A DNA stretch of 64,000 nt, taken from assembly GCA_963667175.2 (NCBI GenBank), contig CAXXXF010000004.1:192001-256000 (forward strand), written 5' to 3'. A program made the position numbers and the translations under genes. Under the pieces are notes generated by a model. That model was not told where the DNA came from, did not search any database, and saw nothing but the letters and a program-made list of their open reading frames with translations. The DNA comes from Candidatus Latescibacterota bacterium (GTDB lineage Bacteria; Latescibacterota; UBA2968; GCA-2709665). Every line of letters begins with the position of its first letter. The first letter of the stretch is position 1. Below, in pieces: positions 23,524 through 39,980 of the stretch.

Positions 23524-23778
23524 TTAATCAGGATCATCACCGCCTATCCGATCGATTGGGATTGGCTCGCGGGAAGGTATGTTCAGTTCCACGCCACCCA
23601 TTGGCGCGAATCGATCATGTATAGCGCTTGCGAGATTGGCAGGTGGCGGGTATACGGTTAGCGCTGCACGCAGAATCGCCCGCGCTTCCTCCTCAATGGA
23701 ATGGCCATGCTCGGCCGCCCGCATGCGGAGACGCTGCGCTAAATCATCGCCGATGTCTTGTATCTTTATACTGCCCAT
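23524..23778 (-). CDS. FitA/StbC-like ribbon-helix-helix antitoxin (no adjacent toxin)
   Basis: MGSIKIQDIGDDLAQRLRMRAAEHGHSIEEEARAILRAAL...NLASAIHDRFAPMGGVEL is a typical plasmid-stability antitoxin sequence. Confidence 0.85.
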   Translation of the reverse strand: MGSIKIQDIGDDLAQRLRMRAAEHGHSIEEEARAILRAALTVYPPPANLASAIHDRFAPMGGVELNIPSREPIPIDRIGGDDPD

Positions 23779-23945
23779 CTTCTCTATCTCCGATTCATAG
23801 TAAATTCGCATTTCCGCCCGAATGTGTGTGCGGTTCCATTTGCGCGGCAACGCCCGAAGCTACCCCGCCGTCAACTCGTGACTTACTTCCCCCTGCACAA
23901 TTCGGCAGTTGACAGCGCACCTGGAGCCCTTAGCCTTGATCTCAT

Positions 23946-24695
23946 TCAATATCGCCCGTGCTCATTTCCCGATGGCGAGCGGTTGAGTTCTTCCCGATGA
24001 TAGCGCCAGGTTGGCATGAACCTGTCCATCAGTTTCCAAAAACGATCGTTGTGACGGCGCTCGATCAGGTGGACCATCTCATGCACAACGACGTACTCAA
24101 GGCAGGATGCCGGTTTCTTTGCCAGCTCGAGACTCAGCCAGATTCGGCGGGCCTGGGGATTGCAAGTCCCCCAACGGGTCTTCATCTTTCTGATCCGCGC
24201 TTCGTTGACCCGCACCCCCATTTCGGGCTCCCATTTTGCAATGATCCCCGGAAGCAAATCACGGAGTTGGCGTCGATACCATCGATCCAGTACGGCCTCC
24301 CTATTATGCCTGTCTGCGCCCGGCCGAACGCGCATCGCTATGGTCGTATTGTTAAGGAGGCGGACCTCAGGCGGGGTGTCCCGTTCCGTCACCTCGAGCC
24401 GGTAGCGTCGGCCCTCGAAAAAATGACTCTCGCCCGTTATGAATTCCCGCTCGGACTGGCGGTATTGCCGCTGAAATCTCGCCTCCTGCAGACGAATCCA
24501 TTCAAGACGGGAAGTGACGGCAACTCGCACGTCGTCTTTATCGAGACGACGCGGCGCGGACACCCTTACGCGACCGTTCGGCGGGTAGACTCTTATGTAC
24601 AGGTTCTTGACGTCCTTGTGCACGACGTCCACTGCGGTTCCTCGTACCTCAATGGTGTAATTTTTCAGCCTATTCTTCACTTTCCACCGTCGCAA
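23946..24695 (-). CDS. M48/YgjP (DUF45)-family zinc metallopeptidase, copy 2
   Basis: MKTRWGTC, VVHEMVH HExxH motif; paralog of 24970-25704. Start position uncertain. Confidence 0.88.
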   Translation of the reverse strand: MRRWKVKNRLKNYTIEVRGTAVDVVHKDVKNLYIRVYPPNGRVRVSAPRRLDKDDVRVAVTSRLEWIRLQEARFQRQYRQSEREFITGESHFFEGRRYRLEVTERDTPPEVRLLNNTTIAMRVRPGADRHNREAVLDRWYRRQLRDLLPGIIAKWEPEMGVRVNEARIRKMKTRWGTCNPQARRIWLSLELAKKPASCLEYVVVHEMVHLIERRHNDRFWKLMDRFMPTWRYHREELNRSPSGNEHGRY

Positions 24696-24787
24696 TCTCG
24701 ACTGAATCGGCGCACGAGGTTCTCATTGTTACCAGATTGGGACTTGATAGCATTGCGGACTTTCAGTCCCCGCCGCCACCGGACGAA

Positions 24788-24920
24788 CTATCCCTGACAC
24801 AGCTCGGCGACCATCGCCGCATTCTCGCCAAGCTGATCGCCGAATTTCTGGTACATCCCCACCAGAAGAATATCGATGGGTTTGATATTATCGAGCGTAA
24901 AGTCAAACTCTGTGCGAATT
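24788..24920 (-). pseudogene. 3' fragment of a homolog of the aldo/keto-reductase-like gene at 40026-40871
   Basis: Translates IRTEFDFTLDNIKPIDILLVGMYQKFGDQLGENAAMVAELCQG*, against IREEFAYTLANVKPNDILLVGMYQKFSDQLGENAAIIAELCRR* in the intact gene. Confidence 0.9.
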
Positions 24921-24969
24921 CAACTTTTGGAGCTGACAGCGCGCTTGGGGCCTCAATCCTTTATTTCGT

Positions 24970-25704
24970 TCAATACTGCCAGTCCGCATGCGCCAGTGGC
25001 GATCGATTGAGTTCGTCCCGATGATAGCGCCAAGTTGGCATGAACCTGTCCATCAGCGACCGAAAACGATCGTTGTGACGACGCTCAATCAAGTGAACCA
25101 TTTCATGGAGAACGACAAAGTCTAGGCAGGATGACGGTTTCTTTGCCAACTCGAGATTCAGCCAGATTCGGCGGGCATCCGGGTTGCAGGTACCCCATCG
25201 AGTCTTCATCTTTCTGATACGAGCTTCATTGACGTGCACACCCAATTCAGGCTCCCACTTCGCGATGAGACCCGGTAGACGATCTCGGAGTTGCTGGCGG
25301 TACCATCGATCCATCACGGCTTCTCTGGTATTCCGGTCGGCCCTCGGTCGTACGCACATTCCCATTGTCGTGTTATTGATGAGACAAACCGAAGGTTGTC
25401 CGTCACATTCCGTAACATCGAGTCGGTAGCGCCTTCCCTCGAAGTAATGGCTTTCACCAGTGACGAATTCCCGTTGGGACTGCCGATTTTGCTTCTCGAA
25501 TTTCGACTGATGGCGACGAATCCATCCCAGCCGAGAAACAACAGCCATCCGCACCGCGTCATCATCAAGACTGAGCGGAGCGGCCACTCTAACCCTGCCG
25601 TTCGGTGGGTAGACCCCAATATGGAGGTTCTTGATGTCCTTGTGGACCACATCGACCGCAGTCCCTTGTACATCAATGCTGTAAGTTTTCCACTCAGTAT
25701 TCAC
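24970..25704 (-). CDS. M48/YgjP (DUF45)-family zinc metallopeptidase, copy 1
   Basis: VLHEMVH HExxH motif; overlaps the hsdR stop, the usual position for this family. Confidence 0.9.
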   Translation of the reverse strand: MNTEWKTYSIDVQGTAVDVVHKDIKNLHIGVYPPNGRVRVAAPLSLDDDAVRMAVVSRLGWIRRHQSKFEKQNRQSQREFVTGESHYFEGRRYRLDVTECDGQPSVCLINNTTMGMCVRPRADRNTREAVMDRWYRQQLRDRLPGLIAKWEPELGVHVNEARIRKMKTRWGTCNPDARRIWLNLELAKKPSSCLDFVVLHEMVHLIERRHNDRFRSLMDRFMPTWRYHRDELNRSPLAHADWQY

Positions 25705-28700
25705 TCTGCGCCTTTACAATCTCAAATATTCGGTACACCAGGCCCTCATTGTCGCCGAGTTGCGACCTTATAGCGTTGCGGACCTCCCGTTCCTTGAATT
25801 TGTTTCCACGCCAGTCCGCTTTCTTGACGCTACGAATGGCGTGATCAACCGCGACAGCCTTTGCGGAAAGTTCATCCGCGGAAAACTCCATCCCGGTGTC
25901 GGCATAGGGTTTGTCTTGCCCAAGTGCGGCACCCTGTAAGTTATCGAATAGAGACCTGAGCGTGTTGGTGTCGATTTCCGACGGATATGACGTCTCGGAT
26001 TCAGGGCTGCTGACTTTTTTGGCCAAGTCAATAATTCTCGCAAGGTACATCTTGTAGTCGAGGCTTTCCTGCTTACGCTGAAGGATCAGGGCGTCCAACA
26101 ACTCAGACATCTTGCCGTAATATTTAGGGTTGACCGGGGTCTCGTCGATGATGAGACGGCGGACGTTATTCTCTATCGTCTCGGCCGTCGCCTCCTGATC
26201 ACTGCGAATACCATCTGGAAGTGCATCTAACGCCTTATCGCCTCGTTTGACGATTAGCTGTACAAGTGTCAGATCGTCAAACGTCGAGAGTCTTTCACTT
26301 TCCTCGGCGCGGATGTAGGTGTCGAGAAGGTGCCGCATGGCCGGCTCATACATCTTCAGGTCAATGTAGTCGCCACTCGCGAGTTTGACCTCCTTGCGGA
26401 CATTCTCGTAGTGATCCACTTCTATTTTTATTTCCTGCGCCTCGGCATCACTGTAACCTGCCTCATGCATTTCGTTGGCCAGGTTGGCGTAAGCTCGCAA
26501 AAGCGCCGCAGTCCGCCTATAGAGGGCTAGACGCCGTGGCTCAGTTTCCTTGAGACCCTTGATACTTCCACCATCCGTCCCGCAGAAGAAACGCCGATAT
26601 GACGCAGAGTCGCGTGGCAGCGCGACCGGCTCACACAGCGCCCGTATAGCCTCGCGTGTCTCCTCAAGCCGCTCACGCCCCTTCGCGAGCCTGTCCGTCA
26701 GCAACCCCTGCACATCGGCATGGTCGTACCCGCCGAAGGCACCTCCGGTGTAATCCTGAATCGACTGCTCCAACGAACGGAACAGGTCCTTGTAGTCGAC
26801 GATATATCCGTACACTTTGTCCTCACCGTCGAGGCGGTTGACACGGCAGATCGCCTGGAAGAGCCCATGGTCCTGCATGTGTTTGTCGATGTAGAGATAG
26901 GTAGCAGAGGGTGCATCGAAACCGGTCAGGAGCTTATCTACCACGATAAGGAGCTTCATCTGCCCCGGCTCCTTTACGAATCGCTTCTTAACCTCGCGTT
27001 CAAACCGCTCAACCTTGTTCATTGCGGTGTCTTCCGGCTCGTTGAAGTGCACCGCAAGCATCTGTCGGTAGATACCGTACCGGCGTAGCCTCTCGGTAAG
27101 CCCTTCGCCGGTCTCCTCACCCTTGATGTCCCCGGGCGCTGGCTTGTAGGATGTGACGATGGCGCACTTACCCGCCAAATCAGTCTGCTGAAACATCTCA
27201 AAAAAGCGGCACGCAGAGTCGATGCTGCCAGAGACCAGCAGGGCGTTGCCCTTACCGCTCTTAAGTCGGTCGCATATCTCCATGTCTAGCTGAATGTCGG
27301 CGACGATTTTCTCCAAGCGATCCCGTGAACTTAACACTCTCCGCATGGTGCCCCAACGCTGTTTAAGTTGGGCCTTCGCTACGTCAGTCAATCCTTTGGT
27401 CTTGACTTCGAACCACTGATCTATCTTGTCCTGAGAGGTAATATTCTGGTCGATGTCACGTGCTTCGTAACGCAAGTCCAGCACCACGCCATCGCGCACC
27501 GCTTCGTCGTACTTATAGGTGTGGATGTAGGTTCCGAAGGTCTCGATGCTGCGGCGCTTATCTGCCTTGAGCAATGGGGTTCCGGTAAAGCCAATGAGCA
27601 TAGCGCCTGGTAAAATTGCCCTCATTGCCTCGTGAAGTTTTCCGGACTGGGTGCGGTGACATTCGTCCACGAAAACGAAAATCTCGCCCTTGGGACGGAA
27701 ATCACCGGGTAGATTCTTCTTGATCTCCTCGACGTAGGCCTCGATTTCTCTTTCGCTGATATCGTCGGTTGTACCGAACTTGTGGATAAGGGAGCCGATC
27801 AGCCACTCGTCGGGTCTGTTAAGTACCTGCACGAGATCAGCTCCACTTTTCGTCCGGTAGATGTCCTCGCTGACACCCTTGAAAACAGCCTCAATTTGCT
27901 CGTCCAACTCCGTGCGATCCGTTATGAGAAGGACCCTTGCGTCGGTGACGTTCTCGCGAATCCATTTCGCAAGCCAGACCATCGTCAGGCTCTTGCCACT
28001 CCCTTGCGTGTGCCAGATGATGCCACCCTCCCGGCTTTTCACTCGGACTTGGGCAGCCCGCGCACCGAAGTATTGGTTGTGGCGGCAAGTCTTCTTTACC
28101 CCAGCGTCAAAGACGACGAAGTCATGTATTATCTCAAGTAATCGCTCTTTGCTGCAGAGTTGACTCAGCTCGCGCAATAAAGGATTGTCGCCGGCAGCCG
28201 GGTTGGCGTTCGCTTCCTTCCAGTGCAGCCAGTATTTTTCAGGTGTCTCGATTACACCGTAACGCAACCCCTCGGTATCATTGCCCGCCATCACGAGTTG
28301 CACGGTGGTGAAAAAGGGGCGGATGAACTCCTTTTTCTGGTTGTCAAGGTTTTGACGAATGCCCTCGGTCACAGAAACCGTCGAGCGCTTCAGTTCCAGG
28401 ATCCCGAGAGCGATCCCATTGACGTATAGCACAATGTCCGGACGTTTGCTGTTCGTCGCTGAGATTGTAACCTCTTCGGCGATTGCAAAGTCGTTATTGC
28501 CAGGATTCTCCCAGTCCATCAGCCAGACAGTGACATTCGGTTCGCCGACGTCCGGTCGGACCTTCACTCCGTAACGGAGCAGGCTGTATACCTCGCGGTT
28601 TGCTTCGTATAGTGTCTTGCTGCCGCCGAGTGCTGATGCTTTGTCCAGTTCGCGCAGAACCTTGTTTACGACATTGTCGGCGTAACCATTGCGCTTCAGC

Positions 28701-28843
28701 CAATCGGTGAGCAGCCTTTTCTCAACATTACCGTTATCGGCGCGATCCTGCCAGTGGCCGAGATTGGAGTACCCTAGCGAATCCCGCAAGAAAGAAATCA
28801 CCCGTCGCTGTGTGCGAAATTCGTTTTGACCGATTGTGTTCAT
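25694..28843 (-). CDS. hsdR: Type I restriction enzyme R subunit
   Basis: RPDIVLYVNGIALGILELK nuclease motif, WHTQGSGKS Walker A, VDECHR, GFTGTP, LLTGFDAP, QAICRVNR. Confidence 0.96.
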   Translation of the reverse strand: MNTIGQNEFRTQRRVISFLRDSLGYSNLGHWQDRADNGNVEKRLLTDWLKRNGYADNVVNKVLRELDKASALGGSKTLYEANREVYSLLRYGVKVRPDVGEPNVTVWLMDWENPGNNDFAIAEEVTISATNSKRPDIVLYVNGIALGILELKRSTVSVTEGIRQNLDNQKKEFIRPFFTTVQLVMAGNDTEGLRYGVIETPEKYWLHWKEANANPAAGDNPLLRELSQLCSKERLLEIIHDFVVFDAGVKKTCRHNQYFGARAAQVRVKSREGGIIWHTQGSGKSLTMVWLAKWIRENVTDARVLLITDRTELDEQIEAVFKGVSEDIYRTKSGADLVQVLNRPDEWLIGSLIHKFGTTDDISEREIEAYVEEIKKNLPGDFRPKGEIFVFVDECHRTQSGKLHEAMRAILPGAMLIGFTGTPLLKADKRRSIETFGTYIHTYKYDEAVRDGVVLDLRYEARDIDQNITSQDKIDQWFEVKTKGLTDVAKAQLKQRWGTMRRVLSSRDRLEKIVADIQLDMEICDRLKSGKGNALLVSGSIDSACRFFEMFQQTDLAGKCAIVTSYKPAPGDIKGEETGEGLTERLRRYGIYRQMLAVHFNEPEDTAMNKVERFEREVKKRFVKEPGQMKLLIVVDKLLTGFDAPSATYLYIDKHMQDHGLFQAICRVNRLDGEDKVYGYIVDYKDLFRSLEQSIQDYTGGAFGGYDHADVQGLLTDRLAKGRERLEETREAIRALCEPVALPRDSASYRRFFCGTDGGSIKGLKETEPRRLALYRRTAALLRAYANLANEMHEAGYSDAEAQEIKIEVDHYENVRKEVKLASGDYIDLKMYEPAMRHLLDTYIRAEESERLSTFDDLTLVQLIVKRGDKALDALPDGIRSDQEATAETIENNVRRLIIDETPVNPKYYGKMSELLDALILQRKQESLDYKMYLARIIDLAKKVSSPESETSYPSEIDTNTLRSLFDNLQGAALGQDKPYADTGMEFSADELSAKAVAVDHAIRSVKKADWRGNKFKEREVRNAIRSQLGDNEGLVYRIFEIVKAQSEY

Positions 28844-28918
28844 GTACGTTCGCAATTTAGTAACTCGGGCCAGTTCACAACTCGGAGAAAGACATTGGCC
28901 GCATTCGATGAGTTGGCC

Positions 28919-29419
28919 TCAATCGTCCATCAGGTCTGGACATACAAACACCACGTGAATCCCATTTTTTTGAAGTGTTGCGCGGTGGTGCCACCAATCT
29001 GTATCAGATGCGTTTAACAACTCCGGACTAGAATGGCTAGCCAACGCTACAGCCACGAACTTTCGATCATCCCAATCGAAAGTATCGAGATCTGGGTCAT
29101 TGGGAAACTCCTCGAAGCCACGGTCTCGGTGAGGCTTTACTGTGATTTTCCGGCAATGCTGGTCGTTAGCTTGGTTTTTCCAAAGCCACAGGAAGAAATA
29201 GTCCCCGAGACCAGGCTCCCCTGAAGGGTTGAGGTTTCTTCGGTATTCGTCAATAATCAGATTCTCGTCGTCAAGAAGAAGCCGAAACCCTCCGTTCTGG
29301 ATCATACTTAATGTTTCTCTACACTTAAATATGCAACTCCGATTGAAGTCTTGGTAATTATGATTTGCAACTACGGCGACATTGGTATCCATGATTATCT
29401 CAGGTTTCTTCGAATTCAC
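28919..29419 (-). CDS. PIN-domain ribonuclease-like protein
   Basis: IIMDTNV, IIDEY, DWDDRKFVAVA, ASDTDW acidic PIN tetrad. Confidence 0.75.
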   Translation of the reverse strand: MNSKKPEIIMDTNVAVVANHNYQDFNRSCIFKCRETLSMIQNGGFRLLLDDENLIIDEYRRNLNPSGEPGLGDYFFLWLWKNQANDQHCRKITVKPHRDRGFEEFPNDPDLDTFDWDDRKFVAVALASHSSPELLNASDTDWWHHRATLQKNGIHVVFVCPDLMDD

Positions 29420-29430
29420 TCGAGATACCC

Positions 29431-30777
29431 CTACCTATTCTGTAAGGCCTCGCTCATGGCGGCAATTTCACCGAACTGATCCCCAAAGAACCCTTTAGGC
29501 CAATTGGAAATATTCCCGAATTTGTCAAGCTCGAGCTGGCTAATGTTTGAGGCACCCTGGTCGTTCATTGAACAGAAATAAAGGCTAACGTCATCCTTGT
29601 TGATCTTTCCTTCTGCGATTCGACGTTGAAGTCTAAGCAATAGATGTTCGCTATGGCTTTCGAACAAGACCTGTACATTCCGCTGCTGCCAAGCGTCAAT
29701 AAATACATCAGCAAGGCCCGCTTGTACAGAAGGATGCAAGTGAATCTCTGGCTGCTCCAATATGATCTTGGACTTACGTGGAACATAGAAACAAAGCACC
29801 AATACGGGAAGTATCTGGGAAACTCCGAAGCCGATGTCAGTGAGGAGAACCTCAGCTGAATTGGGTGACTTACGGACCCTTACTTCGAATAAGCGTCTCC
29901 CTTTAGTCAATGCCACTACGCGAAAATCGTATATCAATCCGAGACGCATAAGCCATTGCGCGATATATCTTTCGAAACTTAGAGGTCGTCGTCGATGGCT
30001 AATCCTTCTTCCACGTTCGCGAGACGATAGGATTGCGTCTACCGCAAATTCGCCTGCCTGGCCCATATCGCGAGGTTGTGCACCAGATCGTGCGTAGATC
30101 CGAGACGGATAGGCACGCAGAGGTCCGAGATAAAAGAGACTCCTTAAGGACAATTCCAATGCGTATTGAAGGCTGTACATTATGGCCGGGTCTTTGAAGA
30201 ACTCAGGAAGCCAATATCTAAACTCGTGAAATTTAACCGAACGAACTAGCCTATCGTCATCCCTCACACGGTGAGACCTATCCCTTCCGGCACCACGTAC
30301 AAACAGATCGTGTTCCTTCTTTCCCGGTACTCGCACCAAACCAAACCGTCTTCCGCGGACAGTATATGCCATTTTTTTTACTAGTGGCGACTTCCCAGAA
30401 CCGACATTCTCCTCTGTGACATCGACATCAAATCCAATTTCGTCACCTGGCGTTGGAGGTTGGGTGTTAATCGTATCGTCAAATGGCAGCTCAATCTCTG
30501 AGTTCCAGCCGAGCGAAAGTCTAATACTTTGCTTTGTGTCATGCTGGTGGACCACGCTTTCAAAGTCACCTAGGTTCACAGGGGATTTTTCATCGCCGAA
30601 GTGAAATACAATTCCCGGGTCTGAAGAGTCGACCGTTTGTTTCATTAACAGCAAAGCTTGAAAAAGGCTGGTCTTGCCAGAACTATTGGTACCAAAAAAA
30701 CCTGTGATAGGCTTAAACGTAATGTCCCCTGTATCTTTCCAGGATTTAAAATTCTCCAAACGTAGCCGTGTCAACAT
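29431..30777 (-). CDS. ABC-type AAA ATPase (AAA_21/DUF3696-like)
   Basis: LENFKSW, Walker A GTNSSGKT, signature GFGVSQILP, Walker B LEQPEIHLHP, ESHSEH, C-terminal WPKGFF; RBS GAGGAGG. Confidence 0.88.
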   Translation of the reverse strand: MLTRLRLENFKSWKDTGDITFKPITGFFGTNSSGKTSLFQALLLMKQTVDSSDPGIVFHFGDEKSPVNLGDFESVVHQHDTKQSIRLSLGWNSEIELPFDDTINTQPPTPGDEIGFDVDVTEENVGSGKSPLVKKMAYTVRGRRFGLVRVPGKKEHDLFVRGAGRDRSHRVRDDDRLVRSVKFHEFRYWLPEFFKDPAIMYSLQYALELSLRSLFYLGPLRAYPSRIYARSGAQPRDMGQAGEFAVDAILSSRERGRRISHRRRPLSFERYIAQWLMRLGLIYDFRVVALTKGRRLFEVRVRKSPNSAEVLLTDIGFGVSQILPVLVLCFYVPRKSKIILEQPEIHLHPSVQAGLADVFIDAWQQRNVQVLFESHSEHLLLRLQRRIAEGKINKDDVSLYFCSMNDQGASNISQLELDKFGNISNWPKGFFGDQFGEIAAMSEALQNR

Positions 30778-30995
30778 TTGGGGCACCTCCTCAGCGAGTA
30801 CCTAACTGTAAGACGTCAATTTAGCAATCCCAGGAGGCTCGGATCATTTCGTTCGTCAAAATTCATCTTATCTCCGTTTACGTCCGGCTTACTTCGAGAA
30901 TCGTCGACCAGAAAAGTCAAATCTCAGTTCCTTTTGCGGCCAAATTCCTGAAAAAACTGCCGAGATATTTCAATTCAACGTTAATTCCTGCGTTT

Positions 30996-31499
30996 CTAAC
31001 GATTCTCGGATTCCCTCTCAATGATACTTGCAAGCTGATCTTGTCTCCAGGGTACGACATTAATATTGTTGTCGATTATTGCCTTAGGAAGTCGTCGTGG
31101 AGGAGTGTTTCCTTTGTGCATAGCGACGACGGCTTTCCCAATTTCAATGCTCTCTCTTATCTCCCAGTCGACCCATTTGCTACTTACGGTATTTTCAGAC
31201 ACATAGACAACAGTTACAGAAGATTGGCGAATGCGTTCCCTAATACCGCGCCTAATATAGTCGGCTACCTCACTGTCGAACGGTTTTCTCAGTGACCAAT
31301 CATTGAAATTTATGTTGCTGTCTTGGTTCCTCGCCTGAGCACGCAGCAAATTAACCTCATTGAGATCATCCGATGAAAAGCTAATAAACACATTGCGTTT
31401 GTGCTCGTCGACACGATCCTTAAGGGACCGTCTGACACGCTGCTCGAGTGACTCCAGTTCGTTTGGGTCTAATCCTCTACCACTGCCTATGCCGCCCAT
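30996..31499 (-). CDS. TIR-domain protein (DUF1863/Thoeris ThsB-like) with Gly-rich N-terminus
   Basis: RNVFISFS, IRERIRQSSVTVVYVS, SKWVDWEI with the catalytic Glu; starts MGGIGSGRG; RBS AGGAG. Confidence 0.88.
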   Translation of the reverse strand: MGGIGSGRGLDPNELESLEQRVRRSLKDRVDEHKRNVFISFSSDDLNEVNLLRAQARNQDSNINFNDWSLRKPFDSEVADYIRRGIRERIRQSSVTVVYVSENTVSSKWVDWEIRESIEIGKAVVAMHKGNTPPRRLPKAIIDNNINVVPWRQDQLASIIERESENR

Positions 31500-31501
31500 T
31501 T

Positions 31502-32098
31502 CTATCTCCTTTTTTCAGCATTATCGATCTCAATACAAGCGATACAAACCCCGCAAGGATCTTTACCACCAGCGTGACACGAATAGGTTTGTGTGATCCC
31601 TCGTTTGCTGGCCAAAAGCAAGACATCTCGCTTTGACAATTCCAGTAAAGGCGCAAGGACAAGAATGCGGCTCCCCATCGCAATCTCGATCATCCTTTCA
31701 CATTCATCCAAGAAGTGTTTCGTCTGGTCTGGGAAGATGTGATCAGCGGGATTGAGTAGACCGAGCGCGATGCTATTTGCCTGAACATCAATTGCATGAG
31801 CCGCACCTGCCAAGACAAATAGGAGATTGCGGCCCGGCAAAAAAGCATCCTCATTTATGCGCAAATTACAGTTTGTGAGACCACTCGAGATCGTCTTTCC
31901 AAACCCAGACACGTCCATGTACGTAGCAGGTGGTAGACCAAATTGTGAGTGAAGGCGCTCGCAGGCCTCCCATTCCTCGCGTACGGCAAGTTGGCCATAG
32001 TCAATAAAGAGTGGAAATAGCTCTGCTCCTTCCTCCTTCGCTATCACGCTCACAAGAGTTGAATCAAATCCACCCGATACAAGAGTCACGATCCGCAA
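31502..32098 (-). CDS. queC: QueC-family PP-loop ATPase (Cap9-like)
   Basis: SGGFDS PP-loop, IDYGQ, PGRNLLF, YSCH...PCGVCIAC zinc site. Confidence 0.9.
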   Translation of the reverse strand: MRIVTLVSGGFDSTLVSVIAKEEGAELFPLFIDYGQLAVREEWEACERLHSQFGLPPATYMDVSGFGKTISSGLTNCNLRINEDAFLPGRNLLFVLAGAAHAIDVQANSIALGLLNPADHIFPDQTKHFLDECERMIEIAMGSRILVLAPLLELSKRDVLLLASKRGITQTYSCHAGGKDPCGVCIACIEIDNAEKRR

Positions 32099-32777
32099 TT
32101 TTGGATTCCTCCTTTGCCACTCTTATTACAATCCAGACTGCAAGGTCGAATTGGTCAGGCGAGTATCCGAACGCACAGGCATGTTCGATAAAGGCGCTTT
32201 CCAACGCTTCGTATTCGCACAGATTCGAAATCGATTTGAACGATGAGCCTGTAATTCCTACCCAACGCAAATAAGTCAGAACATGCACATCCAAGATCGC
32301 AATGTACTTTGCAAAACAAATGTTGCGGAGAAATAGACTTGCCTGTTTCGGTCCCAGACCTGGAACCTCTCGCACTAGCAGTCTTCGAGCGCTGCAAACG
32401 TCTTCTGAATCATCTAACAGGCTGAGTATTGACCCTCGTGTAATGTATATGTATTCTGCTGCCCGCCGAATCTGATTGGCACGGACGCGAAAAAAGGGAT
32501 AACCTCCCGTTAGTGCTGCTAAAGTGTCCACTTCAAATTGATTAAAACAAGTGCGTGGCTGCGGTCGCGACAACAGACACATACTGCTCATGCGTTCGAT
32601 GGCTGCATTAACAGCCTTGACTCTTACCCGACTACCCAGGATACATGACACAAGCTCCCTCCACAGTTCATCTTCGCTATGGATTCTCCAGGACACGGGC
32701 GGGCGTTCTTCTAATGTGTTGCACACATCGCGGATCGCTTGTTCGATAGATAGTAGCGTGAAATTTTTCGTCGCCAT
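32064..32777 (-). CDS. 8-oxoguanine DNA glycosylase/AP-lyase-like HhH protein (Cap11-like)
   Basis: LWRELVSCILGS, HhH VPGLGPKQASLFLRN with catalytic Lys, AILDVHV, DLAVW. ATG 32777 directly follows the upstream stop. Confidence 0.82.
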   Translation of the reverse strand: MATKNFTLLSIEQAIRDVCNTLEERPPVSWRIHSEDELWRELVSCILGSRVRVKAVNAAIERMSSMCLLSRPQPRTCFNQFEVDTLAALTGGYPFFRVRANQIRRAAEYIYITRGSILSLLDDSEDVCSARRLLVREVPGLGPKQASLFLRNICFAKYIAILDVHVLTYLRWVGITGSSFKSISNLCEYEALESAFIEHACAFGYSPDQFDLAVWIVIRVAKEESKIADRDSCIGWI

Positions 32778-32778
32778 G

Positions 32779-33843
32779 CTATTGAACTCCTTCGATAGCA
32801 GGCAATAGCAGATCCAATTGTTCCTTAGTTGCATACTTTTGGACGAACGATTCAACTCTTCCGGTATACAGTGCTTCCTGAAACCCTACCATAAACTCGC
32901 GATAAAAAACCAGATTGTGCATTAAGACAGATTGGACGTACGGTAGTACGGGAGATTGACCCCACTCTGTTTGGTTTCGGATCAGATCCCATTGCTGGAA
33001 ATGTAACAGCCTGCCATTCTCGTGATCAACGACTGCCTGACACCATTCCAATCCATCAAAACTATCGGCTCCCGCCAATGTGTAGGCAATGATTGAAATC
33101 GGATTTCCGGTTCCAAGCAGGTGAAGCGGGCAATAGAAGCCTAATGCGTTTAACGCTACTCGGATTCTCCGTACGGTGCGAATCCGATCGAGAATTCCCT
33201 CACCTAAATCTCGTTCCGCGACAGCCAACAATAAAGGGTAGAGCTTTTCCGCTGTTAAACGCGCCGCATCAGGCAATTCTTCTGCGTTGCCATGGACTAT
33301 CGGAAGCACTGTTGTCTGTGCATTCTCCTGATCTCTTGTTACACCGGCCACGACATCGTCGGCGATCGATTTCGGAGAGTCAGGTGGCTTCAGGTTATCA
33401 AAACAGAAGCAGAGATCGTGTTGATAGGATTGCACGACCTTATGAAAATCAGCCGGTCCCCAATCGGAATCTTGTTTCCAATAGCTTTCGTAGTTTCCGC
33501 TATCAATAAGTACAACGGCACCGCTTTCTATACGTCTATTAAGGGCAGTTTCCATGCGAGGGCGCTGATCATCAGGACAATTGGCTAAATCATATGCAGA
33601 AGCTAAAAACAGTGGATGACCAGTAACGGTCAGAAAGTCAGCGTAACTGACCGGCGATAGGCTTGTCTTCACGCTCGAAACTGAAGGAAAGAAACAGGGT
33701 ACTTGAACGGTTGTCTCAGCGACGTATAACTCCTGGCTTCGTTCGATTGCCGTAGAGGATTCGACGTTTAGGTATTTGGCTCCATTGCAATGTTGGATTG
33801 TCATCTTAATCATCCTTGATTGCTTGAATCTGAAGAACGCCAC
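32779..33843 (-). CDS. tRNA-guanine transglycosylase-fold protein (Cap10-like)
   Basis: PCFFPSVS, LIDSGNYE, LPIVHG, PLHLLGTG, GADSFDG, HNL motifs. The true start may be 33813 or 33804. Confidence 0.82.
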   Translation of the reverse strand: MAFFRFKQSRMIKMTIQHCNGAKYLNVESSTAIERSQELYVAETTVQVPCFFPSVSSVKTSLSPVSYADFLTVTGHPLFLASAYDLANCPDDQRPRMETALNRRIESGAVVLIDSGNYESYWKQDSDWGPADFHKVVQSYQHDLCFCFDNLKPPDSPKSIADDVVAGVTRDQENAQTTVLPIVHGNAEELPDAARLTAEKLYPLLLAVAERDLGEGILDRIRTVRRIRVALNALGFYCPLHLLGTGNPISIIAYTLAGADSFDGLEWCQAVVDHENGRLLHFQQWDLIRNQTEWGQSPVLPYVQSVLMHNLVFYREFMVGFQEALYTGRVESFVQKYATKEQLDLLLPAIEGVQ

Positions 33844-33892
33844 GTAAGACTTCTGTCCATCGAAGAGTAAGTTTCGGAACAGAATACTGACT

Positions 33893-34852
33893 TTACGCCA
33901 TTTCTTCGCCCGCGTGGGTCGGACCGAAATTTACATTTCGGCGTACACACCACATAGTGTGCTCACGAGAAATGGTCTGCTCGACCTGCTCCACGAGCTC
34001 GAGAAAAACAGCCTCTTCCATTGCATCCAACGCGATTGTTTCCTGATCCCCAAGTTCCTGGGCGGCGAGCGAATAGGACTGAGCCAACTCATTGTAGCGC
34101 TTCATTTGACTCCAGGCGACAGCGGAAGCAGCGCAAGTCATTAACAACGGGACCACGTTTAATGGTAAGCCACTCGAACACGCCTGAATAATTGCAAGAG
34201 CAATGGCGGAAATCTGTAGAACAACAACTGTCCAGTACCAACGGATTTCCTTTCTTGAATTGAAGATGGCTTTATTTGAATACCAGGTCTTTTGATCGCG
34301 AAGCCGCGACTCAAGATATAGGTTCCGCCGTTCACCCACGGATTTCCGACGAATTTCATTCATAAGACCACTAACGGATTGAGCATTTGGATCGAGATTT
34401 TGCGCCAAATCCGTCGGGCTGGACGGTCTCGCTCCTCTTATTTGCTGAAGTTTCTCAAGAAATGATTGCTCAGATGTGCTGTCATCCTTGAATGGTTCAG
34501 CCTTCATCATGAATCGCCATGTGGCGGTCTTTGTTGACTCAGCAATCGCCCGACAGTCAAACCAAACTTCCTCATCCCGACGGACGCGGGATGTCAGAGT
34601 AAGAAAAATGCCAATTGTCAGAACGATCGCTAAAAGAACGTAGGTCCATGTGGCGACGATTGGAAATATTGTCGTCATGGCGACACTAACGCTCCCCAAG
34701 ATAAGACAGAATAAATGCCATCGATGAAAGTGAATATAGCGCCGCTGTGCCGAGATTGAGGATCGATCGGCACTCTGGTATAGTCCCGGAAAGTGTTCGT
34801 CTTCAACAATCGTTGGCGCTGATTCCTGCTGGTTATTCCCGTCATTGACCAT
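33893..34852 (-). CDS. SLATT/DUF4231 4-TM membrane effector
   Basis: Two TM hairpins, WFDCRAIAESTKTATWRFMM, RLRDQKTWY, ISREHTMW motifs of tandem SLATT domains. Confidence 0.82.
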   Translation of the reverse strand: MVNDGNNQQESAPTIVEDEHFPGLYQSADRSSISAQRRYIHFHRWHLFCLILGSVSVAMTTIFPIVATWTYVLLAIVLTIGIFLTLTSRVRRDEEVWFDCRAIAESTKTATWRFMMKAEPFKDDSTSEQSFLEKLQQIRGARPSSPTDLAQNLDPNAQSVSGLMNEIRRKSVGERRNLYLESRLRDQKTWYSNKAIFNSRKEIRWYWTVVVLQISAIALAIIQACSSGLPLNVVPLLMTCAASAVAWSQMKRYNELAQSYSLAAQELGDQETIALDAMEEAVFLELVEQVEQTISREHTMWCVRRNVNFGPTHAGEEMA

Positions 34853-34961
34853 CAAAATGCCTCCGAAAATCTGTGTTTTATCATCACACGTCTGTTCTTG
34901 AAGAAAATCGGTTTCGTGTGTCTAACGTTGCCCTGTCGTGCCGTCTAAAACTCAGTCCGAT

Positions 34962-35051
34962 CAGCCTCATCCGCCCAGTAATAAGGTGCAGTATCACTCC
35001 CTGTTTGACAGAACGGATCCTGCCCCGGCACAACTCCACCAAGGCGATCTC
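34962..35051 (-). pseudogene. Degenerate 3' end of an hsdS gene
   Basis: Translates EIALVELCRGRIRSVKQGVILHLITGRMRL, against EIAALERRRKKVRAVKHGMMEQLLSGRVRL at the C-terminus of the intact HsdS. Confidence 0.75.
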
Positions 35052-35074
35052 AACAAGCTTAATGAAATCGTGGA

Positions 35075-35851
35075 CTATCCCGAGATGCTCTCGCTTAGAA
35101 AGCGCGTAATCCTCTCCTGATTTGCAGTGAGGCTGGAGAATTGCTTCTCGCAGACGTCGCTGAAGCGCGCCAACACCTTGCGATTAATCGACTCTTGGTC
35201 TTCGAAAATGGCGAGTGAACCGAACGGTATTTCCCACCGTTCAAATTGAAGGAGCGCGATCGTTGCGTCGCGGGTCCTGCCATCGCTCGCGAGCGCATGA
35301 ACGAATAACGGCCGCTGCATACCGTTGACTCGACAGTCCACGGTATACATTCCTTGAGGATCCCGTTCAGGATCGTTCCAGTCAAAACTCCGACGATTTT
35401 CCGGGACGGCGCCAGTCATCACCGTACGAAAATCGTCCATAAATGTGGAACTGACCCTTGCCCGAGATAAGTACGAAACGTCGGATATCTTGAGTAGCCC
35501 CTGAACGAACGAATACAGTGCGTCACCGTAACGTTCCTCCGGCACGTCAAGTATCAACTCTCCGTCACGATCCTCGATCTGAAACATGGAAAGTGTATTT
35601 GAAATGATTTTTTGACGCGTGCCACCATGGAGATCCTTCTCATCGATGTCGTATGTCAGATGCATGTACGTATGCGCTTCATCGGAAAGCACCCAACGTG
35701 TACCGTCCTTCCTTAAAACGATGTCCAGATGATCGCCGTCGTCGAACATGAACGGGGTAAACACGCGGAAGCGTTCCATACCCTCGGCCGCAAGCCGAAT
35801 CTGAGCCGAGACCTTCTCGTGAAAGTCTCGCTCTATGGTCTCAAAGGACAT
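35075..35851 (-). CDS. DUF1828-like protein
   Basis: VFTPFMFDDGDHLDIVL...WVLSDEAHT N-terminal motif; C-terminal restriction-endonuclease-like region. Confidence 0.7.
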   Translation of the reverse strand: MSFETIERDFHEKVSAQIRLAAEGMERFRVFTPFMFDDGDHLDIVLRKDGTRWVLSDEAHTYMHLTYDIDEKDLHGGTRQKIISNTLSMFQIEDRDGELILDVPEERYGDALYSFVQGLLKISDVSYLSRARVSSTFMDDFRTVMTGAVPENRRSFDWNDPERDPQGMYTVDCRVNGMQRPLFVHALASDGRTRDATIALLQFERWEIPFGSLAIFEDQESINRKVLARFSDVCEKQFSSLTANQERITRFLSESISG

Positions 35852-35854
35852 TGC

Positions 35855-36337
35855 TTACACCTCCTCGAAAAGGTCAACTTGGAGGTCCGGCGGTAACACA
35901 AGATTCACATCGGAAATCAGACAACGAAGGGCACCGTGATAGTCTCCGAAACGGTCGGTTGGATCGGCGTACGCATCCTCCCTGGTTCCGAGTTCCTGAT
36001 ACCTCTCCGTGGCAACATGAATGTGAAAATCATAGAATTTCACGCCTTCAATGCGGTTCGAATGTTCTTGGCTCTTGCCATTATAGCGCCGGAGGCGGAA
36101 GAGTTGATTTGATCCCGGAACTCGAACAGCCAGAATAACTGAGAAGTCGAGCGGATTGATCTTATTCTGCCTGAGAATCAGACGATACTCGCTCCCCGCA
36201 TCACCTGCTAAATCAAGGTGTTGTTCTTCGTGGCCACGCTTGGACTTTAGACGAATCCGGGTGCGCCAATCTGGAGGCAGGAGCTTGCGCTCTTGTATCA
36301 ACGACTCTATCTCATGATCCGAAAACGTTACCGCCAT
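35855..36337 (-). CDS. DUF6978-like hypothetical protein
   Basis: LRRYNGKSQEHSNRIE...FHIHVATERY His motifs; coupled to the DUF1828-like gene. Confidence 0.6.
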   Translation of the reverse strand: MAVTFSDHEIESLIQERKLLPPDWRTRIRLKSKRGHEEQHLDLAGDAGSEYRLILRQNKINPLDFSVILAVRVPGSNQLFRLRRYNGKSQEHSNRIEGVKFYDFHIHVATERYQELGTREDAYADPTDRFGDYHGALRCLISDVNLVLPPDLQVDLFEEV

Positions 36338-36374
36338 AACGATTACAATTCGATGGCCCACACCTGGCCGAAGA

Positions 36375-37196: not shown

Positions 37197-38078
37197 TCAG
37201 TCTGCTTGCCTTTTTGAATTGGTTTCATAGAGATTTTCGGTGATTGCGCCTCGGAATATCTCTTCGTTGAGAAATTGCAAAACCTTTTTCGCCCTAGGCT
37301 TTTCCGAAGGGAAGACAATCTTGTCCTCTGAGATGTGAATATCGACGTCGTATCGAGCGGAACGCTCTCTGATTTCCCCGGCGGAATATTGATCAAGCAC
37401 CCCTGAATCCTTGAGCATAGCGAACCGCTTTCGGAACCATTGATTGGCTCCCATCACTAAGGAGTCCGGGTTTTGCGTTGCCAGCAGTTCGTGCCCCAAC
37501 ACGTCGCGAATCTCCTGATCCGACGCCTCCTTATAAAAGTCCTCTAAAGGAAGAAACGTGTTGACGGTACGGTAATTCCGAAACAACAGCTTACGTTCAT
37601 TCGGCAGATACACTGCTGCCAGTTTGTCATCAAGTGTAATCCCGGGATCTTGGATGGTCTTGTAGGTATTTTTCTCTAGAAACAGAAAACGCCCTGGTCG
37701 AATCAAATGCGAGCGGTTAAAATTCTGAAACAATACTATCTCCGCGCTTCCGCCACTTCGGGCAAAAGCCACGACTCCCTTGATGGATTCGATCAGCGTC
37801 TCATTGCTGCTGATTCTTTCAAGATTCGGAACTGTCTGACTGTCTTCGTATACAATCCAAGGTGGAGGGGTGTAATCATCTAAACAGAAACACTCATGCT
37901 CCTCCGGAGTGTAACCCGCATTGAAGTCGATTTCCTGAATTTCTAAAACGAATCTTCGGTACTGGTCTTGCCAATTCTCAGCGAGGTCGATCTGTAGGTC
38001 TTGATACAGAGGAATCGAGAGCAGGTTTGGACTTGTGCCCTGCTTTGCAATTACAGCAAGTTGGAAGTTTTCAAGCAT
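37197..38078 (-). CDS. kwaB: Kiwa KwaB-like (DUF4868) protein
   Basis: ILFQNF-type motif, GITLDDKL, FRKRFAML, VLQFLNEEIF...LYETNSK C-terminus; overlaps an upstream membrane protein gene. Confidence 0.75.
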   Translation of the reverse strand: MLENFQLAVIAKQGTSPNLLSIPLYQDLQIDLAENWQDQYRRFVLEIQEIDFNAGYTPEEHECFCLDDYTPPPWIVYEDSQTVPNLERISSNETLIESIKGVVAFARSGGSAEIVLFQNFNRSHLIRPGRFLFLEKNTYKTIQDPGITLDDKLAAVYLPNERKLLFRNYRTVNTFLPLEDFYKEASDQEIRDVLGHELLATQNPDSLVMGANQWFRKRFAMLKDSGVLDQYSAGEIRERSARYDVDIHISEDKIVFPSEKPRAKKVLQFLNEEIFRGAITENLYETNSKRQAD

Positions 38079-38610
38079 CCGGCTCTCCTATATGTAGAAA
38101 GATATTCAAAGCGAGTCCAACCGTTTGGACTTCTCTTTCAGGTCTTCGCAAATCAACTCTGCTGATCAGAAGACTAGACACCCCACGCTTGTCTTTTACA
38201 GCGTAGAAGCGATAGCCAAACAACAGACGCATGACGGGATTAAAATGAAAGGCGCCGGCTTGCGCAATTGCTACTACGATGATTAGTAAAATATAGATGC
38301 TCGTTAGCGACTCGCTGGCAAACGTCGAATTTTCGGATCGGACAAAGGGCAACAAATAAATAAACAGGAATGTAAGAACCTCCTGATCCTTGCTTTCAAA
38401 TTCCTTAATGTAGAATGAGTGTTTTTGTGCTTTCTTCGCAGCGTTTCTCAAGAGCGCCCAACAAAGAGCAACCAAAACTATCGCAGCCAAGAACCACCAT
38501 ATCCAACTCGTCCATGGCTCGCAACGCTCGAATTGACTGATGGCCACGGCGCCGAGGACTGGAGATAAAGATGTTGATACCAACAGACACTTGGCAAGGA
38601 AGCTCAGCAT
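38071..38610 (-). CDS. kwaA: Kiwa KwaA-like membrane protein
   Basis: Four hydrophobic segments, FLFIYLLPF and FNPVMRLLFGYRFY motifs; paired with kwaB. Confidence 0.72.
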   Translation of the reverse strand: MLSFLAKCLLVSTSLSPVLGAVAISQFERCEPWTSWIWWFLAAIVLVALCWALLRNAAKKAQKHSFYIKEFESKDQEVLTFLFIYLLPFVRSENSTFASESLTSIYILLIIVVAIAQAGAFHFNPVMRLLFGYRFYAVKDKRGVSSLLISRVDLRRPEREVQTVGLALNIFLHIGEPDA

Positions 38611-39980
38611 GCTGGATTTTCCTTAGTAGGTGTTGGCAGATCCAGCCGTACCCGCCCGGATAAAAGTTGCTCCATCATCCCGTGCTTGACGGCACGAACT
38701 TTTTTTCTCCGTCGCTCCAACGCTGCGATCTCAGCATCCATATCGGAAAGGACAGTTGCGATGGCTCTTTGTTCGGTGTAGTTGGGAACAGAAAGTTCCA
38801 TAGACGCCATATCTCGGTTGCCTATTTCCAGAAATGTTGATCCAATTGCGCGCTCCAACATCCGAGACTTGAGCGTCAAGAGCACGTAATACAGAAACTC
38901 ACTCGAAACATCTGCTTTGCAGACGAGCGACTTAAACCCTTGGTTTGTGCATACTGGCGATATACTGATCTTAATCTCTCCGATGGTTGCGCGGCTGCAG
39001 AGCAGTAGGGAACCAGCAGGAAGCAGCCTCGCCCCGCAACTTGCCAATCCTTCCTCAGTGACACTCCGATGCGTCGCAACGAGGTACTTCTCACGCGTGG
39101 CCGTGATATCGGTGGGCGTACACCACGGAATCGGCCCGTTCCAATAGGCACCAATTTGAGTACTTGGCGTTGCTCCGCCGATAATGTCTGCGACTCTTCC
39201 GACCGTTGTCGTCTCCCACTCCCCGCAGAATCCCGGCAACCGAGTCTTGCCGGTAAGGAGTTGTTGCATCGCCGCTTGCTTGATGGCTCGTTTTTTGGCA
39301 ATCAGCGCTTCCAGCGTCGTAAGCAACCCATCCACATCCGACAACGCCTCGGCGATGGCGCGTTGTTCGGCCACAGGGGGGAGAAATGCACGGACGTTCC
39401 TGATTGACTGCTTTGATATTCCAAAGACCTTTAGACCAGTGGCGAGGCGACGCAATTGTTCCTTTGCCGGCCCATTCTCTAGAAGAAATCCGCGATAGCC
39501 ATATTGGACTCGCATGTCCTTTGATCTGAGCAGGAATGTATGCAATCCTGAAACTGCTTCAGCCGTACCAAGGTTTCGAATTTCGACGCTCTTACCTACA
39601 CCAATTTCGTCTTCGGAGGCATCTGCGACGACTAGATCGCCATCTCTAAGCCGGGTGGCTTTAACACTCTTGCCGCGCAAAAGATATGGTACATCTTCTC
39701 GGGAAAAGTCGATAACATGATCAAATCGGGTATGGATGTCGCCGTAATGTATATACGCCGTTTGCCCGGACTCTCCTAGATCGGCTCTAGAATTGGATGC
39801 AGTACTTTGGAAGTCGAAAAGTTCGCCAATGGAGAATACGGACCAATCATCGGGAATCACTCCCCATTCGGTTCGAGTGTAACCCTCGGGTGGATCATTC
39901 GATGGGGCAAATCCGGGTTCACTTTCTCTGCCCGAATGATCGGATATACTGTTCATCAAATTAACCCTTCGTGCGACCAC
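38604..39980 (-). CDS. hsdS: Type I R-M specificity subunit
   Basis: IPDDW, two TRDs, conserved repeats LPPVAEQRAIAEALSD...KQAAMQQLLTGKTRL and EQRAIATVLSDMD...QLLSGRVRL. Likely start 39956. Confidence 0.95.
   Translation of the reverse strand: MVARRVNLMNSISDHSGRESEPGFAPSNDPPEGYTRTEWGVIPDDWSVFSIGELFDFQSTASNSRADLGESGQTAYIHYGDIHTRFDHVIDFSREDVPYLLRGKSVKATRLRDGDLVVADASEDEIGVGKSVEIRNLGTAEAVSGLHTFLLRSKDMRVQYGYRGFLLENGPAKEQLRRLATGLKVFGISKQSIRNVRAFLPPVAEQRAIAEALSDVDGLLTTLEALIAKKRAIKQAAMQQLLTGKTRLPGFCGEWETTTVGRVADIIGGATPSTQIGAYWNGPIPWCTPTDITATREKYLVATHRSVTEEGLASCGARLLPAGSLLLCSRATIGEIKISISPVCTNQGFKSLVCKADVSSEFLYYVLLTLKSRMLERAIGSTFLEIGNRDMASMELSVPNYTEQRAIATVLSDMDAEIAALERRRKKVRAVKHGMMEQLLSGRVRLDLPTPTKENPAC

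Follow-up and report, generated by a model that had tools for sequence, protein, structure and literature searches.

Known Thoeris and CBASS operons and the locus

Two described kinds of bacterial defense system stand closest to the operon considered here. In type IV of the cyclic oligonucleotide-based antiphage signaling systems (CBASS), the ancillary protein Cap9 places 7-amido-7-deazaguanine (NDG) on Gly2 of the cyclase CdnD, within the motif M(G/S)G(G/S)GG, as demonstrated in a preprint by Wassarman et al. (2025). In type VII Thoeris, according to the preprint of Yirmiya et al. (bioRxiv 10.64898/2025.12.03.692087), a TIR protein is paired with a SLATT protein (ThsH) and the signal is canonical cyclic ADP-ribose (cADPR); section 9 of that preprint (Fig. 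6G, S10B) also describes Thoeris operons with cap9, cap10, and cap11 and presents models of the TIR protein ThsB with Cap10 (interface predicted template modeling score, or ipTM, of 0.79) and with Cap9 (0.62). The operon analyzed here comprises five genes on the minus strand at 30996-34855 of a 64,000-nucleotide stretch, referred to as the window, from the genome of a "Candidatus Latescibacterota bacterium" (assembly GCA_963667175.2, contig CAXXXF010000004.1, positions 192,001 to 256,000), and it encodes, in order, a SLATT protein, Cap10, Cap11, Cap9, and a ThsB-type TIR protein with a glycine-rich N-terminal tail. It is probably a Thoeris-type abortive-infection system, with the type VII layout of TIR and SLATT, that is regulated by the ancillary module of type IV CBASS.

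An earlier note on this DNA had proposed a new anti-phage system, a hybrid in which a TIR signal generator stands where the cyclase would be, is controlled by deazaguanine enzymes, and in turn activates a SLATT effector. The hybrid interpretation is the one preferred here, but its novelty is lost, because Yirmiya et al. already describe the layout and the window is thus a further example of it. In the literature, the TIR-linked Cap layout was found only in their preprint, and the supplementary tables of the papers may hold more: the main text of Yirmiya et al. reports neither a tail motif nor a count nor an experiment for the Cap-linked operons (counts may be in its supplementary tables), the main text of Wassarman et al. 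does not mention TIR, and the portion of the QueC-family paper available to us (PMC13082051) reports a CD-NTase (a nucleotidyltransferase of the cGAS/DncV-like kind) beside 67% of its Cap9 cluster without mentioning TIR. The additions made here are a tail rule backed by controls, the wide spread of the clade, the missing cyclases, and a number of side observations.

A conserved five-gene operon

The operon consists of five intact open reading frames (ORFs) in the same direction, as read from the ORF listing of the window, with start codons that are inferred. The first gene (33893-34855) encodes the SLATT effector of 320 amino acids (Pfam SLATT_3, 1.9e-31; SLATT_1, 1.3e-30; NCBIfam also names both families). 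It is followed by genes for Cap10, a tRNA-guanine transglycosylase (TGT)-like protein (32779-33843; longest ORF, 354 amino acids; Pfam TGT, 2.2e-11; PADLOC TGT, 2.2e-22); Cap11, an HhH-GPD glycosylase resembling 8-oxoguanine glycosylase (OGG) (32064-32777; 237 amino acids from the ATG at 32777; Pfam Ogg-HhH, 3.2e-22); Cap9, a QueC-like ATP-dependent ligase (31502-32098; 198 amino acids; Pfam QueC, 1e-34; PADLOC QueC, 6.1e-28); and the ThsB-type TIR protein, predicted to be both signal synthase and conjugation substrate (30996-31499; 167 amino acids; Pfam ThsB_TIR, 5.9e-24; PADLOC ThsB, 4e-16). The longest ORF for Cap11 extends to 32855 (32064-32855; 263 amino acids), and relatives start at the methionine equivalent to M27, at 32777; relatives of Cap10 begin either at M14 (33804) or around residue 31. 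The names SLATT and SMODS and the association of QueC, TGT, and OGG reportedly go back to work by Burroughs et al. in 2015 (NAR).

Spacing is operon-like, with 2 nucleotides separating the Cap9 stop from the TIR ATG, 1 nucleotide separating the Cap10 stop from the Cap11 ATG, an overlap of Cap11 and Cap9, and a gap of 49 to 88 nucleotides between SLATT and Cap10. Gaps of 219 nucleotides upstream of the SLATT gene (34856-35074), presumed from spacing to hold the promoter region of the operon, and of 209 nucleotides downstream of the TIR gene (30787-30995) set the five genes apart from their neighbors. No consensus sigma-70 site was found on the minus strand of 34856-35074, and the number of such sites in the region did not exceed that in shuffled sequences; terminator, tRNA, and Rfam scans gave nothing informative. 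The earlier note's description of five closely spaced, co-oriented genes for SLATT, TGT, OGG, QueC, and TIR proteins within a defense island is borne out by the Pfam and PADLOC matches, the spacing, and the Kiwa, HEC-03, and type I restriction genes nearby.

Related loci were collected by a pattern search based on the Cap10 alignment, using the single peptide pattern FDGL[ED]WC[QR] in species-representative genomes, many of them incomplete bins; the best 80 of 183 relatives were fetched. Going by the record titles, they come from Latescibacterota, Acidobacteriota, Nitrospirota, Planctomycetota, Chloroflexota, Bacteroidota, Alpha-, Beta-, and Gammaproteobacteria, a Saccharimonadales bin, and others, and the closest relatives are from Latescibacterota genome bins (Cap10 96% identical in L007 and 75% in L009). 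Iterated profiles applied to the 81 sources (the 80 loci and the window) found Cap9 in 78, Cap11 in 75, TIR in 77, and SLATT in 65. The order seen in the window, SLATT-Cap10-Cap11-Cap9-TIR, is the commonest (34 sources); the order Cap10-(Cap11)-Cap9-TIR occurs in 75 of the 80 fetched loci, and Cap9 is immediately followed by the TIR gene in 76 of the 81 sources. Two of the five exceptions are cut by contig ends (L019 and L031) and two are broken (L053 and L070), while L030 has, after Cap9, a 109-amino-acid ORF with a glycine tail that falls below the TIR threshold. This architecture, conserved across many phyla, argues that the operon is not a decayed CBASS.

Identity and active sites of Cap9, Cap10, and Cap11

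Judged by their sequences, the QueC-like, TGT-like, and OGG-like proteins are Cap9, Cap10, and Cap11 and not products of housekeeping genes. The best PDB sequence matches are the solved Cap9 for Cap9 (9nto_B; 5.5e-13) and the solved Cap10 for Cap10 (9ntn_A; 6.1e-7). An AlphaFold model of Cap10 built from a 77-row alignment (predicted local distance difference test score, or pLDDT, of 96.9) comes closest in fold to 9ntn (E value, 1.2e-14; template modeling [TM] score, 0.69), at only about 19% identity in the fold alignment, followed by bacterial tRNA-guanine transglycosylases (TM score, 0.61 to 0.64). All three proteins miss the NCBIfam cut-offs for their housekeeping counterparts (115.2 versus 150.3 for QueC, 30.6 versus 47.6 for the tgt superfamily, and 83.1 versus 183 for N-glycosylase/DNA lyase), and elsewhere the genome encodes two QueC proteins that score better than Cap9, as well as a QueD.

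The residues shown to be important in Cap9 and Cap10 of type IV CBASS (Wassarman et al. 2025 preprint) are kept in the window and its relatives. In Cap9, the loop S8-G-G-x-D12-S13, R90 (matching R86), D124 (D117), and Cys174, -182, -185, and -188 are present in 76 of 76 sequences and F122 (Y115) in 75 of 76. In Cap10, D114 and S115 (D73 and S74), H241 (H226), and D263 (D248) are kept in 77 or 78 of 78 sequences, and the CxCxxC zinc motif is absent, as it is from the solved Cap10. Cap11 has K170 and D189, invariant in 73 of 73 sequences, at a spacing that we take to be that of the Lys/Asp pair in OGG-type enzymes.

A glycine tail on the TIR protein

The TIR protein retains the catalytic motif S-x-W-V-x-W-E ending at E113, the intact glutamate that the earlier note had pointed out; FISF (residues 38 to 41), D45, and W109-V-x-W-E113 are conserved, with E113 present in 74 of 75 partners. 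Solved ThsB and TIR chains align to it only from about position 35, near which the TIR fold begins. Ahead of the fold lies an N-terminal extension of residues 1 to 34 (31398-31499), made up of the glycine tail M-G-G-I-G-S-G-R-G-L-D-P and then a helix. Among the Cap9-linked TIR proteins of the window and the related loci, 73 of 76 start with M-G-G and carry roughly 34 extra residues, with the tail consensus M-G-G-[GS]-[GS]-[GS]-G; 71 of these starts were found automatically, and those of L036 and L072 were read from the ORF listing. The exceptions are L011 (MAG), L008 (MGN), and L067, where the gene is truncated. The start codon lies 0 to 3 nucleotides past the Cap9 stop in 59 of the 74 automatically found tails, and five further Cap9-linked TIR proteins, recovered by a search based on SLATT, all start with MGG.

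In contrast, neither an M-G-G start nor an extension was found in any of the 55 TIR ORFs adjacent to SLATT at loci without Cap genes (46 of 59 such loci have an adjacent TIR). Residues 3 to 10 of these plain TIR proteins align to residues 33 to 37 of the window protein, where the core that they share, at about 30% identity, begins. As a positive control, a motif from the solved Cap10 retrieved true type IV CBASS loci (L177-L182), in which Cap9 and Cap10 are followed by a SMODS protein of 305 to 313 amino acids that starts with MGG (the one in L182 is cut by the locus end); the N terminus of the L179 cyclase is the exact peptide reported by Wassarman et al. The tail on the TIR protein thus strictly co-occurs with Cap9 and Cap10 (73/76 versus 0/55), and Gly2 of the TIR protein is a predicted site of N-terminal deazaguanylation. 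Since the conjugation tail is on the TIR itself in 73 of 76 loci, the alternative offered in the earlier note, a type IV CBASS deprived of its cyclase, is rejected.

Absence of a cyclase

A scan of the whole genome with the Pfam SMODS profile gave two matches only, both on other contigs and none in the window. Since that profile is weak on true type IV cyclases (22.8 to 38.9 bits, one below the cut-off), a dedicated CdnD profile was built from five of them. It found seven of seven cyclases in CBASS loci, two of which were outside the training set, but gave no match at an E value of ≤10 in 658 frames of the window, none in the 3472 ORFs taken from the 80 related loci and the window region, and none in 2201 ORFs of the SLATT loci. 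The statement in the earlier note that no CD-NTase is recognizable in the window therefore stands, and its check for a CD-NTase after the TIR in homologous operons came back empty as well. Each of the three minus-strand frames of the gap at 30787-30995 is interrupted by stops, and the gap gave no significant match to a cyclase, so that the relic envisaged at 30790-30995 is absent. As a candidate for such a relic, tblastn alignments of the two SMODS proteins of the genome with 30701-31100 and with the window were rejected as noise (best E values, 0.05, on the plus strand, and 0.82).

The two SMODS proteins (315 and 326 amino acids; L001, C17:92820-93239, and L002, C12:275209-275637) start with MEYLNQ and MDGQNM, have no glycine tail, and have no Cap9 or Cap10 within about 1.5 kb; their genes are probably parts of separate CBASS-like systems. 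Each is followed by a small gene of 160 to 186 amino acids. No SMODS match was found at the related loci, and 65 of the 80 host genomes have none at all (15 have one). A quick tree of Cap9, read as unrooted and disregarding one outgroup row (contig C16; branch length of 10; wrong ORF), sets the CBASS Cap9 proteins apart from the TIR-linked ones with a support of 87 in the Shimodaira-Hasegawa-like approximate likelihood ratio test (SH-aLRT), which is not decisive.

Model of the TIR-Cap10 complex and proposed mechanism

A complex of Cap10 (residues 31 to 354) and the TIR protein modeled with alignment inputs supports binding of the two. Its interface score (ipSAE) was 0.84 (0.84, 0.64, and 0.88 in the individual runs) versus 0.00 for the best of three controls, and in calibration 58 of 80 solved complexes and 2 of 110 mismatched pairs attained the mark used for this score. 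At least 48% of the contacts are common to the runs, the partner pLDDT is at least 73, and the interface includes residues 5 to 10 of the TIR tail and the helix of residues 14 to 25.

By homology with the systems in the Wassarman and Yirmiya preprints, the operon most likely works as follows. Met1 of the TIR protein would be removed, and Cap9, using ATP and 7-carboxy-7-deazaguanine, would put NDG on the alpha-amine of Gly2. Cap10 would bind the TIR protein together with its modified tail and keep it primed yet inactive; on infection, the Asp263/His241 pair of Cap10 would transfer the tail to a target, and Cap11 would reverse or limit that step, resetting the system. The released TIR protein, through Glu113, would then convert NAD+ into a signal of the cyclic ADP-ribose type, for which canonical cADPR is the best guess because SLATT-linked TIR proteins make cADPR in type VII Thoeris. 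SLATT would bind the signal, oligomerize, and breach the membrane. The two further QueC genes and the QueD gene of the genome speak for a supply of substrate. What the sequences themselves contain is the gene set with its conserved active sites, the tail along with its co-occurrence with Cap9 and Cap10, and the lack of a cyclase; the rest of the scheme is predicted from them.

Several points weigh against this reading. In the model, TIR residues 2 to 4 and Cap10 D114, S115, and D263 lie outside the confident contacts, and the complex was modeled as 1:1 with no nucleobase present, unlike the 2:2 complex of the crystal, in which the tail lies in the opposite protomer; because a solved Cap10-CdnD complex exists, part of the ipSAE may come from likeness to it. 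The likely counterpart, in the TIR-linked Cap10 clade, of K154 of the solved protein is an invariant histidine, His184, which may make a different ligand contact. The carboxy-deazaguanine substrate needs QueE, and the survey of the pathway in the genome covered QueC and QueD. The census samples the TIR-linked clade around the window Cap10 and not all Cap10 proteins. The support for modification, signal, and defense in TIR-type Cap9/10/11 operons is at the level of sequences and models, and the suggested identity of the signal as cADPR is an analogy with SLATT-linked TIR proteins that are about 30% identical.

A broader reading is tentative and, in our view, somewhat doubtful: N-terminal deazaguanylation would be a portable switch, not tied to cyclases, that gates a TIR in this large clade, and this TIR would then be the first such enzyme to carry a nucleobase tag. 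In frequency, the TIR-linked form may equal or exceed the cyclase-linked one (183 relatives from one peptide pattern versus 49 published type IV CBASS operons), but since both samples of loci stem from single peptide patterns, their abundances are not comparable. More boldly, the TGT-like Cap10 may join the tagged N terminus, via N9, to the ribose of an NAD-derived or nucleic-acid target, and Cap11 may cut the resulting glycosidic bond to reset the system; the frequency of a second TIR near or fused with Cap10 and the near-universal presence of Cap11 leave room for this.

SLATT effector and alternative explanations

The SLATT protein has hydrophobic stretches at residues 46 to 92 and 204 to 247 that offer room for about four helices, in keeping with the four transmembrane segments given in the earlier note. 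An alignment search returned at least 562 relatives, of which the best 80 were examined; 59 of these loci had no Cap9 or Cap10 nearby, and 46 of the 59 had an adjacent TIR (55 TIR ORFs). In these two-gene operons, full-length SLATT relatives that are 30 to 36% identical to the window protein stand beside plain TIR genes. At many betaproteobacterial and other loci, the SLATT protein upstream of Cap10 has only 162 to 192 amino acids, about half of the two-domain form in the window (L042-L051, L056-L060, L064, L068, L076, and L077). Proteins with TPR-S or MAP3K_TRAF_bd domains recur near the operon (L028:4557-5888, L029:7405-8787, L061:9921-11174, and nine more loci), and in two loci that lack a SLATT gene, L028 and L029, such a protein occupies the effector position; a TPR domain is tied to cADPR sensing in type VIII Thoeris in the preprint of Yirmiya et al.

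The pairing of SLATT with small TIR proteins bears on the one rival explanation that keeps appreciable weight, though it is itself unlikely, namely, that the TIR protein kills by depleting NAD+ after priming by Cap9 and Cap10, with SLATT as a second, parallel or sensing component. TIR domains serve as NADase effectors in several bacterial defense systems, and in many relatives a second TIR is fused to or precedes Cap10 (7 of 10 long forms), so TIR domains evidently play more than one role near the module. The TIR protein in the window, however, is small, of the ThsB type, and stands alone; members of the same SLATT family accompany small plain TIR proteins in the 46 two-gene loci; and the SLATT protein has no recognizable sensor apart from its nucleotide-binding role. 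For the TIR-SLATT layout, moreover, Yirmiya et al. report phage-dependent production of cADPR by the TIR protein and toxicity of added cADPR to cells that have the type VII system.

It is improbable that the operon is two unrelated neighbors, a Thoeris pair of TIR and SLATT and a QueC/TGT/OGG set that puts 7-deazaguanine into DNA or tRNA in a Dpd-like or queuosine-like manner. QueC and TGT homologs do make deazaguanines and insert them into nucleic acids, and unrelated systems pack tightly in defense islands. Here, however, the three enzymes sit between SLATT and TIR with gaps of 1 or 2 nucleotides or overlaps, the five-gene set travels as a unit across phyla, and the TIR tail occurs only with Cap9 and Cap10; the scores below housekeeping cut-offs, the lack of a zinc motif in Cap10, and the TIR-Cap10 model point the same way.

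A non-immune housekeeping or stress operon that came to lie in a restriction locus by chance is still harder to credit. Every part of the operon belongs to a family with proven roles in phage defense, and its patchy spread over many phyla is like that of mobile defense genes. In the window it is placed between hsdS (38604-39980) and hsdR (25694-28855) of a type I restriction locus, with hsdM at 40893-43430, as one of four cassettes inserted between hsdM/hsdS and hsdR; the others are Kiwa (kwaA, 38071-38610; kwaB, 37197-38078), a DUF6978/DUF1828 pair, and HEC-03 B/A. In 25 of the 80 related loci, relatives of the window HsdR, HsdS, or HsdM lie within 6 kb of the operon, and about 8 loci have them on either side of it.

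Least probable of all is a type IV CBASS remnant, with the TIR as a chance neighbor or the cyclase supplied from elsewhere, for which the two SMODS-family genes on other contigs could speak but against which stand their lack of a glycine tail or Cap9/Cap10 neighbors, the gap without a relic, the 80 related loci in which a tailed CD-NTase was looked for and no CdnD-like ORF found, the host genomes without a SMODS match (65 of 80, counted with a profile that is weak on type IV and in many incomplete genomes), and the separation, not decisive, in the Cap9 tree.

Variation among related loci and genomic context

Cap10 relatives of 450 to 590 amino acids carry an N-terminal TIR_2 domain in 7 of 10 scanned (P0125, P0136, P0144, P0195, P0198, P0219, and P0270) and a Schlafen AlbA_2 domain in 2 of 10 (P0141 and P0157). 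Other loci have a separate second TIR gene of about 132 amino acids just upstream of Cap10, and the window has neither the fusion nor the second TIR. Loci with a TIR-fused or TIR-preceded Cap10 include L003, L004, L006, L013-L018, L037, L052, L054, L061, L062, and L066. Directly upstream of TIR-fused Cap10 in 14 loci, mostly of Rhizobiales and relatives, is a protein of 376 to 438 amino acids with a weak PfkB-kinase-like match (L037:4468-5604, L066:4301-5521, and 12 further loci), which may be an extra component of this subtype.

The actinobacterial type IV CBASS loci L178 and L181 have their own genes for a QueE-like radical S-adenosylmethionine (SAM) protein (L178:2932-3579) and a QueD/PTPS protein (L181:1612-1977), downstream of the genes for cyclase and effector; for each kind, one gene was scanned with Pfam, and the counterpart in the other locus was read from its N-terminal sequence. 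These genes presumably make the carboxy-deazaguanine substrate locally. The operon in the window has no QueE-like or QueD gene of its own.

The type I restriction setting recurs, with the operon tending to occupy such loci between hsdS and hsdR (for example, L004, L006, L009, L010, L011, and L058). In the window, the G+C content is 46 to 49% at 29 to 39 kb versus 60 to 70% in much of the remainder. The pair between Kiwa and the operon, at 35075-36361, encodes DUF6978 (168 amino acids) and DUF1828 (258 amino acids; PADLOC candidate PDC-M24B) proteins and is kept alongside the operon in L007 at 94% identity. Just downstream of the TIR gene, at 28919-30786, lies the candidate defense pair HEC-03, comprising HEC-03B, an AAA_15/DUF3696 ATPase (1.5e-129), and HEC-03A (166 amino acids; 6.7e-33). 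The island extends past hsdR at 19735-25704, with a type IIG restriction-methylase-like protein of 1011 amino acids (20400-23435) and two YgjP-like metallopeptidase genes (23946-24695 and 24970-25704). In the high-G+C flank, at 3991-14277, a single ORF of 3428 amino acids encodes a multidomain type I polyketide synthase, with ketosynthase (KS), acyltransferase (AT), dehydratase (DH), methyltransferase (MT), enoylreductase (ER), ketoreductase (KR), and acyl carrier protein (ACP) domains in the order KS-AT-DH-MT-ER-KR-ACP and then a second KS.

Comparison with known systems

Two unrelated kinds of synthase, nucleotide cyclases and NAD-cleaving TIR enzymes, share the glycine tail and a control module derived from QueC, TGT, and OGG, which suggests that the module is a general priming device and not a peculiarity of CBASS. 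The TIR version offers a second, simpler substrate of 167 residues that could help to find the transfer target of Cap10 and the role of Cap11, and an MGG start directly after Cap9 provides a simple sequence test for such operons.

One of the systems compared is QatABCD (Nat Commun 2026, PMC13279940), which also has a QueC-family protein, QatC; this acts on the N-terminal glycine motif of a protein, QatB, with an essential unstructured N terminus and Gly2. It has, however, no TGT-like or OGG-like partner, TIR, or SLATT; the motif reads MGTS, and the system works with an ATPase and a TatD nuclease.

With type IV CBASS the operon shares Cap9 with its SxGxDS loop, residues that contact the nucleobase, and zinc cysteines; a TGT-fold Cap10 with the Asp/His pair, the base-reading D-S pair, and no zinc motif; an OGG-like Cap11, optional in CBASS; and a signal synthase whose N terminus starts M-G-G-[GS]-[GS]-G, found in the window on the TIR protein (MGGIGSG). 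Unlike in CBASS, the synthase is a TIR protein, and the defining CD-NTase is absent from the window. Six CBASS loci have the order Cap9-Cap10-CdnD whereas the window has Cap10-Cap11-Cap9-TIR, and Cap11 is found in 75 of 81 sources here versus about one third of type IV CBASS (Wassarman et al. 2025). Loss of cap11 increases toxicity in type IV CBASS. The Cap9-dependent NDG on Gly2 (+176 Da) that characterizes type IV CBASS is, for the window, predicted from the tail.

As a Thoeris system, the operon combines a ThsB-type TIR protein that has the catalytic glutamate with an effector gene in the same operon. It resembles type VII in the small ThsB-type TIR protein and the two-domain SLATT protein, which is homologous to TIR-paired SLATT proteins, and differs from it in the three enzymes between TIR and SLATT and in the 34-residue tail; this comparison was made with SLATT homologs rather than with the tested ThsH and ThsB sequences.

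The Cap-linked Thoeris operons of Yirmiya et al., as presented in their preprint, hold a TIR, an effector, cap9, cap10, and cap11 in one operon, as in the window, and the AlphaFold3 model of ThsB with Cap10 in that preprint agrees with the TIR-Cap10 model obtained here. The locus L115, which comes from Pseudomonadales bacterium SP163, the organism that Fig. S10B of the preprint names, reads Cap10-Cap11-Cap9-TIR-SLATT and has a TIR protein with an MGGGGG tail; the gene order differs in that SLATT is last there and first in the window, and the proteins of the window are only distant relatives of those in L115, with 33% identity for SLATT.

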